DNA of 51,567 bases, from NCBI GenBank assembly GCA_964429315.1, contig CAYSBQ010000002.1:1-51567 (forward strand). The letters are read 5' to 3'. Numbering within the stretch: the first letter of the stretch is position 1; every line of letters begins with the position of its first letter. This document shows, piece after piece, positions 30,970-42,750 of this stretch. The stretch comes from an uncultured Desulfobacterales bacterium (lineage in GTDB: Bacteria > Desulfobacterota > Desulfobacteria > Desulfobacterales > C00003060). The notes under the pieces are model-generated. The model searched no databases and was not told where the DNA came from. It saw only the letters and a program-made list of their open reading frames with translations. The position numbers were made by a program, and so were the translations under genes.

Positions 30970-32298
30970 TCACGATGTCGCAAAGAAACTTTCCATTACC
31001 TTGTTGAATTCTTCCCCCCGCCACGCTGCGGAAGGTTTTGTGGCCTCAGACACCAGGATGTCCTGTTTCAAAAAAGGCAAAAAGTCCGAAACCCTTGGGA
31101 TAACTACCCTGACTACCGGAAAGTCCAGTACCGGATGCGTCTGCTTTAATATGATGGGTTCGGTGTTCAGGACCTTGCATATCCCCTTGATTTTCTCAGT
31201 TTCGCCAAGGATGTCATCGACCGTGACGTTCCCATAGTCTTTGGTTTCACCTTGCTCAAGAAACGAGATGTCTTTCGGAGAAATGCCGCATTTCATTAAC
31301 AAATAGAAATTATCTACCTGAGACCTGTGGATAACAGGCCTGTCCAACTGCGGGCGCGGAGTCGATAATGTCTCCCTGCCTTGCATGCTTTCCGTAAAAC
31401 ACCTTGTCAGGGCTTCGTCGAGATTGAAAGAAACCCCCGGTATGAGTATTCTATGCTCCAGCCGATCGGAACGTAGATTATGGTTAATGAAAAGGACACC
31501 TATGGCCGGCAATAGACCATCAAAAGAAAGATCCTTGATTATAACATCAACTTTGTTTTCCTTATAGAACGCGATCATACGCCTTATGCTCTCGTTTTCT
31601 ACTGAATCAGGGTCGATTGATGGTATTATCTTTTCAGGTCTGATCGTCTCTATTTGGGCATGACGTTCAAAGATTTCACAGGAGGCCTGAACCATTGCCT
31701 CTTCAATGGTGTTTCCTGCCGCAAGGCCGTTAGAGGCGTGAATGTAGGCAATAAAATTAACAGGTACCTTTATGGTTTTTTTACGGTTTACCGAAAACCC
31801 GTCAACCCAATGATGGGCCATCCGGCTGTTTTTGATATCTTCGATGTCCGCTTTGCGCAAATGCGTCTCGTTTCCCAGCAAGTCCTCTATCTTTAAGGGA
31901 TCTTCTACGTCGTCCTGATGGGCATGGATATACCCATCCATCCATTCATAATTCAGGAACCTGTTGATCTCCTTGTTGTAAAGCGCGGGAAAGTTAAACC
32001 TTACCTCTTCTTCAAAAACCGGATAGAATAACCCGGCGCTGAAGCGTTCAGCCAGTTCTGCATATGCGCTTGCCTCGGCAAGCTCCGGGGTAATGCCTTT
32101 TCCGTTACAAACGATCCTTATGGAATCGATCCAGACCCGCCCCCAATGTATATTCTCCGACACCCGGAAAGGAGCGTACTCGGCACTAAGTCCCAACTTG
32201 CGGAATCCAGTCTTTATCCTCTCAATGGTGTTGGCGGGAATGTCGCACTTGCCATACTCGTTTCTAACACAATTTTGAAATTCCATTCTATTCGCCAC
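30970..32298 (-). CDS. stand-alone YcaO-family ATP-dependent amide-activating enzyme
   Basis: 442 aa (GTG at 32298 or ATG at 32286). SAYAELAERFSAGL and ASNGLAAGNTIEEAMVQASCEIFERHA are hallmark YcaO motifs, as is the C-terminal DFPVVRVVIPRVS. Confidence 0.85.
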   Translation of the reverse strand: MANRMEFQNCVRNEYGKCDIPANTIERIKTGFRKLGLSAEYAPFRVSENIHWGRVWIDSIRIVCNGKGITPELAEASAYAELAERFSAGLFYPVFEEEVRFNFPALYNKEINRFLNYEWMDGYIHAHQDDVEDPLKIEDLLGNETHLRKADIEDIKNSRMAHHWVDGFSVNRKKTIKVPVNFIAYIHASNGLAAGNTIEEAMVQASCEIFERHAQIETIRPEKIIPSIDPDSVENESIRRMIAFYKENKVDVIIKDLSFDGLLPAIGVLFINHNLRSDRLEHRILIPGVSFNLDEALTRCFTESMQGRETLSTPRPQLDRPVIHRSQVDNFYLLMKCGISPKDISFLEQGETKDYGNVTVDDILGETEKIKGICKVLNTEPIILKQTHPVLDFPVVRVVIPRVSDFLPFLKQDILVSEATKPSAAWRGEEFNKVMESFFATS

Positions 32299-32352: not shown

Positions 32353-33162
32353 TCACTCATTGCGTAGGACCATACACGCCCAGCTGCGTTCCGTCGCCTC
32401 TTGAACCAAGGCGAGGCCCTGTTCAATATAGGTCCTGGTAAGAGACATCAACAGATCCTCTTTGAAACCGGAAATAATCACGACTCCGCCCCGGAGTATT
32501 TTTTTTGCTACTGCAGATGAAAGATTCTTTAGCGTAGGTGCGGCCAGATTGGCAAGAATGATGGAAAAGGCAGTATCCAACTCCTCAAAAGGTCTTTCTG
32601 TGATATAAACCTGCTCGGCAACATTATTGATTGAAACATTACGGCGGGCCTCAGCTATGGCACACGGATCAATGTCGTTGCCAACCACCTCTTGCACCCC
32701 TAGGTGCGCCAGTGCAATCGCCAGGACTCCGGAACCCGTACCAATATCCAAGCCGGCGAGAGGGCCGCTTGGAAGCATTTCGGCCTCACGGCGGAAAAGC
32801 CGATCCAGCGCCCTTAAAATCAGACAGGTGGTTGGATGGGCACCTGTCCCAAAGGCAGCCCCAGAGGCAATGTCGATTACTATATCCCCCGGATGTGCCT
32901 GATAAGCCTTCTCCGGCGGTTTGAGTACAATCCTTTCTGAAATACGAACGGGTTTATTAAAGGATGGTTCTAAAAAGCTTGTCCCATATATATATGTGTA
33001 CGCCAGTTCCTCAGAGGCGACCATCTGCCTGACGGCCTGCCTGACCACCTTTCGGTCAAGACCCGAGGCGTCAGAAACACTCCTTTCCACCTCGGCTGAA
33101 GTCATTTTCTCTTTGGCATCAACAATTGCGCTATATATTATGCGCTTCAGTTCTCGGGTCAT
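32353..33162 (-). CDS. PrmA-like SAM-dependent (protein) methyltransferase with a divergent N-terminal domain
   Basis: 269 aa. IDIASGAAFGTGAHPTTCLILRALD and LDIGTGSGVLAIALA...VGNDIDP match the PrmA catalytic core. The first ~90 aa look like a winged helix (ELAYTYIYGTSFLE). Confidence 0.75.
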   Translation of the reverse strand: MTRELKRIIYSAIVDAKEKMTSAEVERSVSDASGLDRKVVRQAVRQMVASEELAYTYIYGTSFLEPSFNKPVRISERIVLKPPEKAYQAHPGDIVIDIASGAAFGTGAHPTTCLILRALDRLFRREAEMLPSGPLAGLDIGTGSGVLAIALAHLGVQEVVGNDIDPCAIAEARRNVSINNVAEQVYITERPFEELDTAFSIILANLAAPTLKNLSSAVAKKILRGGVVIISGFKEDLLMSLTRTYIEQGLALVQEATERSWACMVLRNE

Positions 33163-35758: not shown

Positions 35759-38700
35759 ATGCGTGATCCAGCCATCTACATAAAAGGGGCCAGGCAAAAC
35801 AACCTCAAGAACCTTGACCTTAAAATCCCCCTCAACCAGATCACAGTAGTCACCGGGGTTAGCGGATCCGGGAAGTCTTCGCTCGCCTTTGACACCTTGT
35901 ATGCCGAAGGGCAACGCAGGTACGTGGAGACCTTCTCACCTTATGCCCGACAATTCATGGACCGTATGGATCGACCTCAAGTAGATCGTATTGAGGGAAT
36001 CCCGCCGGCCATCGCCATTGACCGCAAGGCTCCGGTGCGAACCTCCCGCTCCACGGTGGGGACCATGACGGAATTGACTGACTACGTGAAGCTCCTCTAC
36101 GCCCGTCTGGGACAACTCCACTGCAAAGGATGCGGTAGACCGGTCATACCTGAAACCCCACAGTATGTATGGGAACTCTTGCAGGATCTGTCCGATGGTA
36201 TCCAGGTCGTCATTACCTTTCCCTTCTCCGTTAAAGGGAAAGAACCCGTCACAGGGTACAAAGAACTGGCACGGCTCGGCTTTGATCGCTTTTTTTGTGA
36301 CGGCAAGGTTTGGCCCATTGAGAACAAAGGGGCAAAGGAAGATCTCGAATCGTTCCATATAGTTGTAGACCGGGTCATACTCCGAAAAAAGGACAAAACG
36401 AGAATCATAGCCTCCCTGGAGCAGGCCTTCCATTTCGGGCAGAGCTACTTCGATGTTTGGATCAAGCCTGCCGGCGCTGATTCTAATTCAAACGAACAGA
36501 ATCAACACCTTTCTTTCAGCAATACCCTGGAATGTGCTAAATGTAAGATCTCCTATACCCCTCCACAGCACAACCTCTTTTCTTTTAACAGCCCCCTTGG
36601 AGCCTGTGAGAATTGCAGGGGATTTGGTCGGATCATCGATATTGATTTGGACCTCGTCATCCCGGACCCCAACCTTTCCCTGGAAGACGGCGCCATCAAG
36701 CCTTGGGGAGACTGGCTAGACCATCGCATGGAATATGAAGACTTGATAGCCTTTTGTCGGCGCAAGAAAATACCAACCCGGATTCCATTTCAAGACCTCA
36801 AAAGCCACCACAAAGATGCCTTAATTGAGGGTACGTCCCGCTACTACGGAGTACGCGGTTTTTTTAACTGGCTCGAATCGAGAAAATACAAGATGCATGT
36901 GCGGGTTTTCCTTTCCCGATACCGTCTATACACGATTTGCTCTCGGTGTAATGGAACGCGCTTTAAGGAAGAGGCCCTGCTGTATCGACTTGGGGGGCTG
37001 AATATCGGCGAGCTTTACGCATTGAATGTAGATAAGGCCAATGAGTTCTTTGCATCGCTCCGCATACCACCCTTGGATGAAGCCGGCATGCTTGTCTTGG
37101 ACGAAATCCGAAACCGGCTAAGATATCTTCGAGACGTAGGGCTCGGTTATCTTGCTCTCAACAGGCAATCCCGTACTCTTTCCGGGGGTGAGGTCCAGCG
37201 CGTGGCCTTGGCTTCCGCCCTCGGGTCTTCACTGGTCAACACCCTCTATGTCCTTGATGAACCAAGTATCGGCCTTCACCCCAGAGATAACCATCGCCTT
37301 ATCCGTATAATGAAGGGTCTAAGAGACCTTCAGAACACATTGGTTGTAGTGGAGCATGACCCTGAGATCATCAGTCAAAGTGACCTCATCCTCGATCTCG
37401 GCCCCGGGGCAGGCAAGCAGGGTGGGAATGTGATGTATTTCGGTCCCACGGCGAGCGTGAATAGCTCCCTTACCGGACAGTATCTCAAGGGTGAGCGCTT
37501 CATCCCAGCGCCCAAGAAACGGCGAAAACCTAAGAAGGGACTGTGGCTCACGATCCAAGGGGCCTGCGAACACAATCTAAAGGATATAGATGTGCATATC
37601 CCCTTGGGTCTTATGGTCTGTTTGACCGGTGTTTCAGGCTCCGGCAAATCGACTCTGGCAGAAGAGATCCTTTATAAGGCCATCAAGTGGGCCAAGTGGG
37701 ACCCACGGGGCCGCGCCGGTCATCACAAGGCAATTGAAGGTATGGAACATATTGTGGACGCAATCCTTGTAGACCAACGACCCATTGGACGGACTCCCAG
37801 AGCAAATCCTTTGACTTATACCAAGGCGATGGGCCCAATCCGCAACCTCTTGGCTAACACACATGATGCGTGTGCTGGTAAGCTTGGGCCGAGCCATTTC
37901 TCCTTCAATGTAGCTGGAGGAAGATGTGATACATGCCGCGGGGAAGGATTTGAAAAGATTGAAATGCAGTTTCTCTCTGATGTCTATGTCTCTTGCCCTG
38001 ACTGCAAAGGGAAGCGATTCAAAGACAAGGTCCTGAAGGTAACATACAAAGGGAAAAACATCTACAATATCCTTTCTATGACTGTGGATGAGGCCCTTAG
38101 CTTTTTTGAAGATCAACCAAAAGTGGAAACTGCCCTAAGACCGATGGCAGATGTGGGACTCGGTTATGTACGCCTTGGACAACCCATAAACACATTTTCC
38201 GGAGGTGAGGCCCAGCGGCTCAAGCTCTCCCGATACTTAAAGGAGAGCACCGGCAATTCTAAACTTTTTATCTTTGACGAGCCGACAACAGGTCTTCATT
38301 TTAACGACATTGAAAAGCTCCTGGCTGTCCTGCAAAGGCTTGTCGCTGAAGGCAATACGGTATTGCTGATAGAACATAATATGGATGTCGCAAAGGCGGC
38401 TGACTGGATTATTGACTTGGGGCCTGAGGGTGGAGAAGATGGAGGTCAAATCGTTGCAACCGGGCCACCTGAAAAAATAGCAAAAGAAGCGGGATCTCAT
38501 ACAGGCCGGTTCCTTAAGGCCTATTTAACCAACCGGGGTCGTTTAGAACCCGACAACCTCTCTGATCCTGGGTCCAAGATGGTTTTCGCCACTTCCACGC
38601 TGCCCGTCTCACATAAAGGGAAAGGTTTTGGAACAAGCAATGCCGCAGCGGTGACCACCATTTCAGAACCGTCCGATCTAAGACAGTCTATGGGCTTCTC

Positions 38701-41173
38701 GTCGGCTATTACCATAAAAGGCGCAAGAGAGCATAACCTCAAGAATTTGACACTGTCCATTCCACGCAACCAACTTGTGGTCCTCACGGGAGTGTCCGGC
38801 TCGGGTAAATCGACACTCGCCTTTGACATCCTCTTCGCCGAAGGACAGCGCCGCTATTTGGAAAGCCTAACCCCTTATGTGCGACAATATATACAGGCGC
38901 TTGAACGCCCCGAAGTAGATGTCATATCCGGCCTTCCGCCTACGGTTGCTATTGAACAGCGTATCAGTCACGCCAGCCGTCGCTCTACAGTAGCAACCCT
39001 AACGGAAATCTACCACTTTTTGAGATTGTTATACAGCAAACTGGGTTCTCAACACTGCCCCGGCTGTGGACGCAAATTGACCGCCCGGAGCCCGGAACAA
39101 ATAGCAATTCAAATCAAGCGGCGTTACAAAAACAAGAAAGCGATTGTCCTGGCTCCCAAGATATCAGGAAGAAAAGGCTTTCAAAAGGATGTCTTGGCCC
39201 AGGCGCGGCGAAAAGGCTTTTCGGAAGCAAGGATTGATGGTGTTATGACCGGGCTTGAAAAGCACATGGCCCTCGCACGCTACCACGAACACACTATCGA
39301 GGTTGTTGTTGGGCGACTTCCTGCGGCAGATCCGGACAGCGTTGTGTCACAGGCCCTTAAAGAAGGCAACGAACACCTCATCATCGTCGACTCCAGTGGA
39401 CATGAAGAAGTCTTCAGTCAACATGCTACCTGCCCTGTATGCGGTCTTGGCCTCCAAATGCCGGACCCTCGGCTTTTTTCTTTTAACAGCAGCCATGGAG
39501 CCTGTCCCGAGTGTGATGGTCTGGGTGACATAGGACACAAGGATGAACGCCGCGTGTGTCCCCGCTGCCGTGGAAGTCGTCTCGGTCAAAGGGCATTGGC
39601 AGTAAAGATAGGCGGCCATACTATCTGGGACCTGGTACAACAACCATCCGACAAAATCTTTTCAATCTTGAAAGGTCTTTCCTTTCCCAAAGAACAACTA
39701 CCCATTGCAGAGCCAATCCTGGCAGAGGTCCTAACGCGACTTGCTCTGCTTAACCGGCTCGGATTGTCCTATCTTTCGCTAGGCAGAAGCGGCGACACCC
39801 TCTCCGGGGGTGAGGCCCAACGAGTCCGGCTGGCAGCTCAACTCGGATCAAACCTGACAGGCGTATGCTATATTCTGGATGAGCCTACCATCGGGCTTCA
39901 TGCCAGGGACAATAGGATGCTCCTTAATGCTCTAGTGGAACTCAAGGAAAAAGGCAATTCAATCCTGGTAGTAGAACATGATGAGGAGACCATTCGAGCT
40001 GCCGACCATATCATCGATCTCGGCCCGGGAGCCGGCCGGGATGGGGGACAAATCGTGGCAAGTGGCAGCCTGAAAGATCTAAAGAGCGTTGCCGAATCTA
40101 TTACCGGCGCCTGTCTTAACTCAATAACCCGCACGGTTACCTCCCGTCTCAGGCCGTATAACAAGCTACCCGGCCTCACCATTCACAAGGCAAAAGAACA
40201 TAACCTAAAGGGGATAGACGTGGGGTTTCCCCTGGGAACCTTGATTTGTGTGACGGGTGTATCGGGATCGGGAAAATCTACCCTTCTTAAAGATGTTTTG
40301 TACCACGGAGTGCGTGAACGTCTATTGAAGAAACCCTCCGGCATAAGAAACTATGAGAAAATAGAAGGCTGGCAAAATCTAAACCGTATACTGGAAGTAG
40401 ACCACCGCCCCATTGGCCGCACCCCCCGCTCTGTGCCAGGTTCTTATGTGGGATTTTTGTCCGATATAAGAAGGCTTCTTTCTAACACCCCCGAGGCACG
40501 TGCCCGAGGATATGAGGCCGGTCGGTTTTCTTTCAATGTGGCTGCCGGTCGTTGTGCGGTCTGCAAAGGCCATGGCAGCCTAAAAGTTGCTATGAACTTT
40601 CTGCCCGATGTCTATATACACTGTGAGGTATGTGGTGGAAGACGATTTGATCAGGAAACCCTGGCAGTAACCTACAAAGGAAAGAATATTGCTGAAATCC
40701 TGGATCTTACTTTCAAAGAGGCCGGAGACTTCTTTGCTGCCATTCCTTCGATTTGTAGGCCGGTTTGTTTTGTATGTGATATCGGCCTAGGCTATCTGCG
40801 CCTCGGTCAAGCCAGCCCTACTCTTTCCGGGGGGGAGGCCCAACGTATTAAACTAGCCAAAGAATTGGCCAAGCCGTCAAAGGGCCAAGATCACAACACG
40901 CTCTATATCCTGGATGAACCAACCACAGGGCTACACCTTGACGACATTCACCAACTCTTAAAAGTCCTGCAAGCGCTCGTTGATCAAGGGAATACTGTGG
41001 CTGTCATCGAACATAACATGGAAGTCATAAAAGAGGCCGACTTCATAATCGACCTTGGTCCCGAAGGAGGAGATCATGGGGGGCAGGTCGTGGCAACAGG
41101 TTCACCCTTGGAACTTCTTTCCAACCCAAAGACCTCTCATACAGCTTGCTATCTAAAGGAATATCTTGTGTAG
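35759..41173 (+). CDS. uvrA: tandem-fused double UvrA (two complete UvrA-like units, four ABC nucleotide-binding domains, 1804 aa)
   Basis: Four Walker A motifs (GVSGSGKSS/T) and four signatures (LSGGEVQR, FSGGEAQR, LSGGEAQR x2). Unit 1 is about aa 1-922, the linker about 60 aa, and unit 2 about aa 984-1804. UvrA-type zinc modules are present in both units. Confidence 0.9.
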   Translation: MRDPAIYIKGARQNNLKNLDLKIPLNQITVVTGVSGSGKSSLAFDTLYAEGQRRYVETFSPYARQFMDRMDRPQVDRIEGIPPAIAIDRKAPVRTSRSTVGTMTELTDYVKLLYARLGQLHCKGCGRPVIPETPQYVWELLQDLSDGIQVVITFPFSVKGKEPVTGYKELARLGFDRFFCDGKVWPIENKGAKEDLESFHIVVDRVILRKKDKTRIIASLEQAFHFGQSYFDVWIKPAGADSNSNEQNQHLSFSNTLECAKCKISYTPPQHNLFSFNSPLGACENCRGFGRIIDIDLDLVIPDPNLSLEDGAIKPWGDWLDHRMEYEDLIAFCRRKKIPTRIPFQDLKSHHKDALIEGTSRYYGVRGFFNWLESRKYKMHVRVFLSRYRLYTICSRCNGTRFKEEALLYRLGGLNIGELYALNVDKANEFFASLRIPPLDEAGMLVLDEIRNRLRYLRDVGLGYLALNRQSRTLSGGEVQRVALASALGSSLVNTLYVLDEPSIGLHPRDNHRLIRIMKGLRDLQNTLVVVEHDPEIISQSDLILDLGPGAGKQGGNVMYFGPTASVNSSLTGQYLKGERFIPAPKKRRKPKKGLWLTIQGACEHNLKDIDVHIPLGLMVCLTGVSGSGKSTLAEEILYKAIKWAKWDPRGRAGHHKAIEGMEHIVDAILVDQRPIGRTPRANPLTYTKAMGPIRNLLANTHDACAGKLGPSHFSFNVAGGRCDTCRGEGFEKIEMQFLSDVYVSCPDCKGKRFKDKVLKVTYKGKNIYNILSMTVDEALSFFEDQPKVETALRPMADVGLGYVRLGQPINTFSGGEAQRLKLSRYLKESTGNSKLFIFDEPTTGLHFNDIEKLLAVLQRLVAEGNTVLLIEHNMDVAKAADWIIDLGPEGGEDGGQIVATGPPEKIAKEAGSHTGRFLKAYLTNRGRLEPDNLSDPGSKMVFATSTLPVSHKGKGFGTSNAAAVTTISEPSDLRQSMGFSSAITIKGAREHNLKNLTLSIPRNQLVVLTGVSGSGKSTLAFDILFAEGQRRYLESLTPYVRQYIQALERPEVDVISGLPPTVAIEQRISHASRRSTVATLTEIYHFLRLLYSKLGSQHCPGCGRKLTARSPEQIAIQIKRRYKNKKAIVLAPKISGRKGFQKDVLAQARRKGFSEARIDGVMTGLEKHMALARYHEHTIEVVVGRLPAADPDSVVSQALKEGNEHLIIVDSSGHEEVFSQHATCPVCGLGLQMPDPRLFSFNSSHGACPECDGLGDIGHKDERRVCPRCRGSRLGQRALAVKIGGHTIWDLVQQPSDKIFSILKGLSFPKEQLPIAEPILAEVLTRLALLNRLGLSYLSLGRSGDTLSGGEAQRVRLAAQLGSNLTGVCYILDEPTIGLHARDNRMLLNALVELKEKGNSILVVEHDEETIRAADHIIDLGPGAGRDGGQIVASGSLKDLKSVAESITGACLNSITRTVTSRLRPYNKLPGLTIHKAKEHNLKGIDVGFPLGTLICVTGVSGSGKSTLLKDVLYHGVRERLLKKPSGIRNYEKIEGWQNLNRILEVDHRPIGRTPRSVPGSYVGFLSDIRRLLSNTPEARARGYEAGRFSFNVAAGRCAVCKGHGSLKVAMNFLPDVYIHCEVCGGRRFDQETLAVTYKGKNIAEILDLTFKEAGDFFAAIPSICRPVCFVCDIGLGYLRLGQASPTLSGGEAQRIKLAKELAKPSKGQDHNTLYILDEPTTGLHLDDIHQLLKVLQALVDQGNTVAVIEHNMEVIKEADFIIDLGPEGGDHGGQVVATGSPLELLSNPKTSHTACYLKEYLV

Positions 41174-41676
41174 CTTTTTAAATAAGCGCTCACAGGTTCA
41201 GGGTTCAACTTTTTTCTTGACACATTACAATATATTGTGCTTATGTGCTATGAGTACTGGAATATATGGATATGAGGAGGACTTTCAGCGAAAGTAGTAA
41301 AGACGTTGAATCTCGAAAAGATCGGAGCATGTGAGAAGCTGGGCCTGTATTTGTATTAGACTTTCACTAGTCCTTAAAGCATTGACATGCACGTTGCCCA
41401 CCCGAGAAAACGTTTGCAACCCTACCGACTGCAAGAACGATCAAGGTCTCCCGGTCCTGCAGGCAGGATCGGTATTTTTCCTTTCCCAGACAAAACCTTA
41501 GCCCTTATTATCATCCCGGAATCCCCAGAAGTTTTTCCAATCAAGCCAGATGCTTTTTCAGTCAAGATGATCCAACAAAAACAGATAGGAACAAACCATT
41601 TCCAATCTTTAACGCCGGGAAAAAGCGACGTTTGGCGAATCAAAATCCAACAATCAAAACATAAGGAGGATACGCC

Positions 41677-42750
41677 ATGAGAAAAATTGCTCTCGTCAAC
41701 CAAAAGGGCGGCTGCGGGAAGACCACGACCGCAATCAACATGGCATCTTGTCTGGCAAATGCGGGCAAGAAGGTTTTGCTGGTTGATCTGGACCCTCAAG
41801 GGCATGTGGCATTGGGCCTGGGAATAGAGACTGAAGGGATGGATAAGAGCATCTATGAAGTGTTATTGGGAGAAACGCCAATAACCAATGTCATTGTGAC
41901 CTTATCGGACAACCTTGATGCCGTTTTAAGCGATGTTATCCTAAGCGCCTTTGAACAGTCTATGGCCGGCACTCCGGGGCGGGAAAACAGACTCAGACAG
42001 AGCCTCAAGATTGTCGAAGACGATTACGAATACCTCATCATTGACAGCCCACCCAGCGTAGGGCTTTTAACCTTTAATGGTCTCATGGCCTCAAACGAGT
42101 TGATTATCCCCGTAGACCCCAGCCGCTTTTCTTTGCACGGACTAGGAAAACTACTGGAAACCCTCCAGATAATCGAGGAACAGGCGGGGCATAGGTTGTC
42201 CGTCAAGATTCTTGCCACAAATATTGATCTAAGGACCAATTTCTGTAAAGAAGTGCTGGAAACACTTATGGAACACTTTTCTGATAAATGTTTTGATGCC
42301 GTTATCCACACGTGCACCAGGATAAGGGAAGCTACCAGTCATGGCAAATCTGTTGTTGAATATGACAAACATTGTAACGCCTTTCGAGACTACCAAGAAC
42401 TAACACAGGAAATCCTCGGTCAGGAAGCTGATATGGAGGCGCGAGTGGCCCGGCTTGAACTCCTGTCAGAGATTGAAAAAGAGGAGGAGGAACAAAGGAC
42501 GGTTATGTTTACTGTAGAGGCGCCGGTGAACGCCGACGTACAAATTGCCGGGGATTTTAATCAGTGGCAACCCGAGGTTCTTCACTTTACCGACACTCCG
42601 GGAGAACCGGCATGGCAAAAACTCATCACCCTTAGCCCCGGTTCCTACGAATACAAATATCTCGTTAACGGTCTGTGGGTTGTTGATCCGGACAATGATA
42701 AGATTATAGACAACCCATTGGGCGGTACTAATTCCATCATAGATGTTTAG
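41677..42750 (+). CDS. ParA/MinD-family ATPase fused to a C-terminal CBM48 / AMPK-beta-type glycan-binding domain
   Basis: 357 aa. Deviant Walker A NQKGGCGKTT, VLLVDLDPQG, YLIIDSPPS. An acidic coiled linker follows. The C-terminus is VMFTVEAPVNADVQIAGDFNQWQPEV...GSYEYKYLVNGLWVVDPDN...GGTNSIIDV. AAGGAGGA RBS. Confidence 0.85.
   Translation: MRKIALVNQKGGCGKTTTAINMASCLANAGKKVLLVDLDPQGHVALGLGIETEGMDKSIYEVLLGETPITNVIVTLSDNLDAVLSDVILSAFEQSMAGTPGRENRLRQSLKIVEDDYEYLIIDSPPSVGLLTFNGLMASNELIIPVDPSRFSLHGLGKLLETLQIIEEQAGHRLSVKILATNIDLRTNFCKEVLETLMEHFSDKCFDAVIHTCTRIREATSHGKSVVEYDKHCNAFRDYQELTQEILGQEADMEARVARLELLSEIEKEEEEQRTVMFTVEAPVNADVQIAGDFNQWQPEVLHFTDTPGEPAWQKLITLSPGSYEYKYLVNGLWVVDPDNDKIIDNPLGGTNSIIDV

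Follow-up and report, generated by a model that had tools for sequence, protein, structure and literature searches.

The stretch of DNA analysed here (the window; 51,567 nucleotides of contig CAYSBQ010000002.1, from an uncultured Desulfobacterales bacterium) carries on its forward strand, at 35759-41173 with the stop at 41171-41173, the gene of a fused double UvrA of 1804 amino acids (aa). Canonical UvrA is a homodimer with a subunit of ~940 aa. We confirmed that this gene encodes two class-I-type UvrA units in one chain with only one insertion domain (ID), and comparison of the two units across their family showed, as far as sequence can tell, that unit 1 has the sole ID and the sole canonical UvrB-docking surface of the fused protein and that the DNA-binding arginine patch of signature domain II is better preserved in unit 2. 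We favour, with some reservation, the reading that this is an intact, expressed-type gene whose product, an ancient fused class I UvrA paralogue, would be a lopsided single-chain damage sensor feeding UvrB/UvrC. Mutations in a homodimer hit both protomers, and the number of UvrB molecules, IDs and ATP sites that are needed, and their side of the lesion, are hard to learn from them; in a natural single-chain UvrA with complementary halves, each half could be mutated separately.

Architecture and integrity of the fused gene

Translation of the 1804-codon frame (35759-41173, forward strand) revealed no internal stop, and in a profile search of the genome both units exceeded the TIGR00630 cut-off inside a single open frame of 1806 codons, with unit 1 scoring 1032.8 bits. 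The excised units scored 1034.7 and 1059.3 bits (cut-off 729.8), and with NF001503 the whole protein scored 2128.6 against a cut-off of 1147, the single units remaining under it at 1064.8 and 1070. A motif scan located four Walker A motifs (aa 33, 624, 1011 and 1500; lysines K39, K630, K1017 and K1506), four ATP-binding cassette (ABC) signatures (aa 474, 813 (FSGGE), 1348 and 1689), four H-loops and six zinc modules, three per unit, as CxxC pairs at the expected places. Three of the four Walker B motifs were found by pattern and the fourth, CYILDEPT of unit 2, was read off the sequence. Pfam UvrA_inter matched the fused protein twice and UvrA_DNA-bind only once (aa 296-361).

Unit 1 (35759-38533, forward strand; aa 1-925) is a complete class-I-type UvrA with a UvrB-binding domain and an ID, and its residues 6-921 align end to end with chain residues 4-914 of T. 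maritima UvrA (3pih; E 2e-260). Its zinc module 1 (C122/125..C259/262) encloses 133 aa, the UvrB-binding domain (aa 126-258; 36134-36532, forward strand; by Cys pairs and Pfam UvrA_inter), within which the family alignment places the UvrB-contact helix, VVDRVILRKKDKTRIIASLE (aa 202-221; 36362-36421, forward strand), with R215 and E221 as the counterparts of E. coli R216 and E222. Zinc module 2 (C283/286..C394/397) encloses 107 aa that constitute the insertion, or DNA-binding, domain (aa 287-393; 36617-36937, forward strand; by Cys pairs and Pfam UvrA_DNA-bind), and the third zinc module is C723/726..C746/749.

Unit 2 (38705-41170, forward strand; aa 983-1804) retains all ATPase motifs and zinc modules and is devoid of an ID; its alignment to B. 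stearothermophilus UvrA (2r6f) covers chain residues 23-307 and 422-955 and skips precisely the ID. The 121 aa enclosed by zinc module 1 (C1100/1103..C1225/1228) form a UvrB-binding-type domain (aa 1104-1224; 39068-39430, forward strand; best Pfam UvrA_inter stretch 1111-1209), the UvrB-contact segment of which, beginning VVVGRLPAADPDSVVSQALKEG (aa 1182-1205; 39302-39373, forward strand), is degenerate, with a 5-aa deletion and no equivalents of R216 and E222. In zinc module 2 (C1249/1252..C1267/1270; 39503-39568, forward strand; CPECDGLGDIGHKDERRVCPRC), a loop of 14 aa replaces the ID, as judged by the Cys pairs and the 2r6f alignment, and the third zinc module is C1599/1602..C1622/1625. An AlphaFold2 model of unit 2 alone has a mean predicted local distance difference test (pLDDT) score of 79.3 and a confidently folded UvrB-binding-type domain, with block pLDDT mostly 81-91. 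The best structural match of the model is the class I UvrA 3uwx, chain A (TM 0.77, E 4e-78), with TM 0.76-0.77 on 3uwx and 2r6f, and class II structures match less well (E 1e-55).

An earlier note, made from the letters of the window, had described one reading frame with two UvrA units, four Walker A motifs, four signatures and zinc modules in both units, and the motif scan agrees; the coordinates it gave for the linker, the zinc modules and the ID were right to within a few bases. Its proposal that two UvrA units are covalently joined with only one insertion domain between them is borne out by the alignments and motifs, the ID being present in unit 1 (107 aa, matched by Pfam UvrA_DNA-bind) and reduced to 14 aa in unit 2. 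It had also placed a UvrB-binding segment in both units, which holds for the domain fold but not for the contact residues, found in unit 1 only.

The units are joined by a 57-aa sequence rich in Ser, Gly, Thr and Pro (aa 926-982; 38534-38704, forward strand). Among relatives this linker varies in length and sequence and the frame is always kept; the family median is ~24 aa and the maximum 70 aa, values of 0 and 6 aa in the family appear to be artefacts of the pattern, and the shortest reliable linkers, found in the wider clade, have 14-17 aa. At least 120 protein clusters, with lengths of 1694-1819 aa and identities of 65-92% to the query, were retrieved in a search limited to long proteins, and among the 120 listed the query was covered completely in 119 and to 96% in one. 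These clusters are from independent assemblies named Desulfobacterales, Deltaproteobacteria or Thermodesulfobacteriota, and those that are annotated carry the name excinuclease ABC subunit A/UvrA. Seven further genomes of the same genus have a single frame of 1768-1830 codons with an identical match pattern, namely a full unit, then positions 2-29x and then 402-923 of the model; contig-end fragments of the gene occur in at least two more genomes of the genus, and the gene is also uninterrupted in several closed genomes. Because the linkers differ across independent assemblies yet stay in frame, an assembly join or a missed stop, the worry raised when the fusion was first noticed, is excluded for practical purposes: that two adjacent uvrA-like genes were wrongly joined in the linker by an assembly or sequencing error is extremely improbable, fragmented as the source assembly is (291 contigs), given the same unbroken fusion in at least 120 independently assembled clusters, the seven genomes of the genus and the closed genomes. 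Fused genes of this kind are labelled plain "UvrA" in annotation and are easily taken for assembly errors.

Complementary halves and the history of the insertion domain

In order to compare the two units at functional residues, we scored 120 family members with the residue numbering of E. coli K-12 uvrA. In the E. coli protein, R216 and E222 form the UvrB interaction surface, as characterised with mutants, and R712, R722, R724 and R730 are involved in DNA binding (Manelyte et al. 2010, PMC3025350). At the position of R216, unit 1 has Arg in 120 of 120 members and unit 2 in none, its residue being Asp, Asn, Gly or Ser beside the 5-aa deletion; likewise, the Glu of E222 is found in unit 1 of 119 of 120 and in unit 2 of 0 of 120. 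The DNA-binding residue R730 displays the reverse, with no Arg in any of the 120 first units, which carry His or Tyr, and Arg in all 120 second units, and at R724 unit 1 has Arg in 56 and Lys in 42 members and unit 2 Arg in 119. The Walker A lysines are invariant in both units. The asymmetry at R216, E222 and R730 also extends across 66 diverse members of the wider clade, two-ID members included, in which the Walker A lysines are again invariant and the Walker B Asp/Glu near-invariant. Since clade members with both IDs already show the same pattern, the residue asymmetry is older than the loss of the ID.

We then investigated how common this layout is by a profile-free search of 1.84 billion representative proteins with aa 605-1804 as the query, in which fused targets score roughly double single ones; the best 150 matches were mostly fused UvrAs of 1550-2340 aa. 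To class the units, we aligned each of them pairwise with the canonical UvrA that the source genome encodes, a procedure that replaced a too-noisy regular-expression classification; B stands for a zinc module 1 that encloses 80 aa or more, I for a zinc module 2 that encloses 70 aa or more, and lower case for anything shorter. The layout of the fused gene, BI+Bi, was the most frequent fused-UvrA layout among the representatives retrieved, with 171 proteins of which 120 are the close family, in a sample that the unit-2 query biases towards this very layout, so that the counts are not frequencies. Both IDs are retained in 41 proteins (BI+BI), 22 are doubled class II proteins (bI+bI), and the remainder are BI+bI (6), Bi+BI (5), Bi+Bi (3), BI+bi (3) and Bi alone (4 stand-alone proteins). 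Of the 401 genomes sampled in the phylum, about 75 have frames of at least 1700 codons by a hand count of the listed rows. The architecture is thus not the unusual one that it had first seemed, being the commonest fused layout among the representatives retrieved, and a natural uvrA fusion has been published (PMC8567305).

In trees of single units, unit 1 sits in a clade of 67 first units, every one of them BI, and unit 2 in a clade of second units that mirrors it (48 Bi, 16 BI and 3 bi), together with three stand-alone proteins. The two clades have identical sub-groupings, and the canonical UvrAs of the phylum, that of the source genome included, form a separate, well-supported clade. From these mirrored clades, apart from canonical UvrA, it follows that the fusion is ancient and that the two units co-evolved. 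A recent tandem duplication of the resident uvrA, considered as an alternative origin, was rejected, as the trees make neither unit the sister group of its partner or of the phylum's canonical UvrA. The two units evolve at similar rates, with identities to P0003 of 77% for unit 1 and 75% for unit 2 and end branches of 0.23 and 0.24. Other fused groups lie elsewhere in the trees, which suggests several independent fusions.

The concatenated tree was built from 66 clade proteins and 1687 columns, the ID columns being removed by the filling threshold. On this tree the presence or absence of the unit-2 ID requires 13 state changes, of which at least 10 are forced by well-supported branches, and zinc module 2 of unit 1 encloses 103-146 aa in every one of the 66 proteins, so that its ID is always kept; the remnants in the ID-less second units of relatives measure 10-55 aa. 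Because regain at the same spot is implausible, we read these changes as losses, and they point to many independent losses of the ID, always from unit 2. A single loss was rejected by the tree and by the approximately unbiased (AU) test (1136 log-likelihood units worse, AU p = 3e-8), in which the group was named after inspection of the tree, a choice that weakens the test. The own group of the source gene consists of 7 ID-less members (support 100), and the successive outgroups of this group, which belong to two further families of the phylum, have both IDs. Both IDs are also kept by a protein of this clade from a cultured strain, Thermodesulforhabdus norvegica WP_093394543.1.

Two further arrangements were observed in the phylum. 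The closed genome G039 has neither the fused gene nor a canonical-scoring UvrA and contains three separate genes instead, a full unit of 909 codons with a unit-1-like score (C1:230740-233391) and two ID-less units, one of 818 codons nested in the unit-2 clade and a further one of 801 codons, the loci of these two genes being C1:1860552-1862942 (L028) and C1:1682066-1684420 (L035); this set looks like a split version of the fused protein and is possibly heterodimeric. In one family of the phylum, genomes G013 (C34:9295-11787, L029) and G218 (C36:7130-9643) have a UvrA without ID, of 846-869 codons, nested in the canonical clade, and the fused gene of the same genomes retains both IDs.

Relation to known UvrA proteins

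The fused protein shares with canonical class I UvrA (E. coli; PDB 2r6f, 3uwx, 3pih, 3zqj, 9gxk) the two-module ABC ATPase core, the three zinc modules and a UvrB-binding-type domain in each unit, whereas the ID and the R216/E222 contacts of the canonical protein are matched by unit 1 only. It differs in having two dissimilar units in one chain of 1804 aa instead of a ~940-aa homodimer, unit 2 being without ID and UvrB contacts and unit 1 without R730.

A double-UvrA model, NF001885 (PRK00635; 1809 positions), which we take to be the Chlamydia type, likewise describes a double-length UvrA of ~1800 residues. Membership of this family was rejected, as the fused protein scores 1220.2 bits against a cut-off of 3054 and both units align best to the first half of the model. 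Class II UvrAs are without zinc module 1 and the UvrB-binding domain and keep the ID, the reverse of unit 2, and those known, such as D. radiodurans UvrA2 (2vf7), Ecm16 (7sh1) and DrrC, are likewise UvrA-derived paralogues beside canonical UvrA. The doubled class II forms (1590-1680 aa, 22 clusters) have no zinc module 1, whereas the fused protein keeps it twice. These doubled proteins were reportedly named 'class III' by Goosen and Moolenaar in 2008. The fused protein had from the start been set apart from class II and doubled class II, rightly so, since neither of its units has lost zinc module 1 or the UvrB-binding-type domain.

A further parallel is the natural fusion of two uvrA genes in Planctomycetes (Seeger et al. 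2021, PMC8567305, Fig. 13), which likewise has two uvrA-derived units in one frame at ~2x the E. coli length. It is dealt with there in one sentence and one figure, a passage that does not mention any asymmetry of the halves, and the authors treat the fused protein as the UvrA component of a UvrABCD system, whereas the source genome has a canonical uvrA as well. An engineered E. coli UvrA without residues 290-400 is ID-less like unit 2; it retains incision on short substrates with poorer damage discrimination, and transcription-coupled repair is less impaired than global repair (Manelyte et al. 2010, PMC3025350). That protein is a laboratory homodimer minus both IDs, whereas the natural fused protein retains one. 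In cryo-EM structures the DNA is clamped by two IDs (PMC12796330).

We found no published description of lopsided UvrA halves in the literature. Already known are a natural uvrA fusion, noted a single time in print in the passage cited above, and database entries of fused 'excinuclease ABC subunit A', which are common; new are the complementary loss of residues across the clade, the recurrent loss of the ID from one side only and the relatives with the fused form as the only high-scoring UvrA. The fused gene is a typical member of a known yet unstudied family.

Repair context and proposed function

The source genome (3.0 Mb, 91.8% complete, in the 291 contigs mentioned) has a canonical uvrA of 950 aa on contig C136 (1427.6 bits to TIGR00630) and one copy of uvrB on contig C104; an Mfd-sized frame of 1169 codons partly matches the UvrB model. 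The earlier note had left open whether canonical uvrA, uvrB and uvrC accompany the fused gene, and the first two were found, whereas no uvrC was found in the source assembly at its 91.8% completeness; since 18 of 20 genomes in the genus do have uvrC, this absence is most likely an assembly gap. Canonical uvrA occurs in nearly all relatives searched in the genus and order, while the fused gene has a scattered distribution. The fused gene therefore encodes a second, accessory sensor in the source genome and the sole one in some relatives: in G104 and G257, closed and 100% complete genomes of the same phylum that also have uvrB and uvrC, no UvrA other than the fused form scores high.

The canonical uvrA of the source genome (L001:964-3816, G000 contig C136) has itself an odd first ABC signature, LSAGEWQR, the second being normal. 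In the 16 of 16 other canonical UvrAs compared, the first signature starts with L[SA][GS]GE, usually LSGGE, and Ala at signature position 3 or Trp at position 6 occurs in 0 of 16.

Competence of the fused form in nucleotide excision repair (NER) is plausible, given that G104 and G257 have uvrB and uvrC and no other high-scoring UvrA. It is further supported by unit 2 of G104, from which R216 and E222 are likewise absent, and by the existence of M. tuberculosis UvrA2 complexes that, according to their entry titles, were solved with one and with two UvrB (PDB 9ga3, 9ga4). In the mechanism that we propose, the two units would fold together via the flexible linker, so that a single chain would mimic the head-to-head UvrA dimer; each of the four ATP sites would be active, and damage would be sensed as in UvrA. 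Each molecule would probably recruit one UvrB and not two, because only unit 1 has a canonical UvrB-docking surface, and would hand over to the normal UvrB/UvrC pathway. In the source genome, a specialised repair branch for a lopsided sensor beside the symmetric one is possible.

Several points weigh against a lopsided single-chain sensor. The fused gene was not found in 9 of 18 genomes of the genus, many of them incomplete, and with so patchy a presence it may be dispensable. The pairing of the two units within one chain is most likely, and it is something we infer. The domain of unit 2, being well folded in the model, might contact UvrB, Mfd or another partner in a different manner, and our literature searches yielded no paper on the biochemistry or structure of any fused UvrA. 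The query bias behind the layout counts and the choice of the AU-test group, both described above, count on the same side.

A bolder proposal, which we hold only tentatively, is that the protein is an obligate half-of-sites UvrA, in which one chain would be the whole sensor and one UvrB and one ID clamp would be sufficient for NER, and which beside a canonical UvrA would serve a distinct branch, e.g. transcription-coupled or strand-directed loading. Sufficiency for NER is proposed because some closed genomes have no high-scoring UvrA besides the fused form, and the repeated one-sided loss of the ID together with these sole-UvrA genomes suggests that one clamp and one UvrB dock suffice. If this were true, the one-sided loss would show that the symmetric UvrA2B2 design is mechanistically dispensable.

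Alternatively, the units could pair between chains, either like with like (unit 1 to unit 1', unit 2 to unit 2') or in a daisy chain, giving at least two UvrB sites and IDs and an asymmetry that is only apparent. The 57-aa flexible linker of the source protein does not impose intramolecular pairing, but clade members manage with linkers of merely 14-17 aa, one unit has lost the UvrB contacts and its partner has lost R730, as is expected of obligate partners, and the mirrored phylogenies of the two units also speak against pairing between chains; we consider this arrangement unlikely.

Clearly more doubtful still is an NER-independent, class II-type protein (as UvrA2, DrrC and Ecm16) that displaces DNA-binding drugs or gives self-resistance. 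A second UvrA paralogue next to a canonical uvrA is indeed the usual class II setting (PMC9328131), but both units of the fused protein keep zinc module 1 and the UvrB-binding domain that class II lacks, unit 1 retains R216 and E222, and the fused form is the only high-scoring UvrA in G104 and G257. Moreover, no biosynthetic or transporter cluster was found near the gene in the window, and its neighbours differ among relatives. A component of an anti-phage defence, e.g. of a MADS-like system, as the PADLOC mad3 match of the fused protein would have it (543 bits, with 208 bits for mad8), is highly improbable, since mad3 (PDLC04135) also gives 338-342 bits per single unit with the canonical UvrAs of the source genome and of E. 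coli K-12 (L052:3053-5872; 342 bits), so that the mad3 and mad8 matches are generic UvrA homology, and no other mad-type or defence genes lie near the fused gene in the window; a lone mad3 match is no evidence of a defence system, as the model strongly matches any UvrA. The drug-resistance or defence role that the earlier note had entertained thus finds no backing in the housekeeping, non-conserved neighbours or in the generic mad3 match, and a sensor feeding UvrB/UvrC is the reading we retain.

No conserved operon partner of the fused gene was found, its neighbours in the window and in three relatives being unrelated housekeeping and metabolic genes. Upstream, a YcaO-domain protein of 442 aa (30970-32298, reverse strand) adjoins a PrmA-like methyltransferase (32353-33162, reverse strand). 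The 3' side of the fused gene is a spacer of 503 nt poor in open reading frames (41174-41676), and at 41677-42750 (forward strand) there is a ParA/MinD-type P-loop ATPase (AAA_31, CbiA) with a C-terminal CBM48-type glycogen-binding domain (AMPK1_CBM, aa 286-357), an unusual pairing of domains in one protein.

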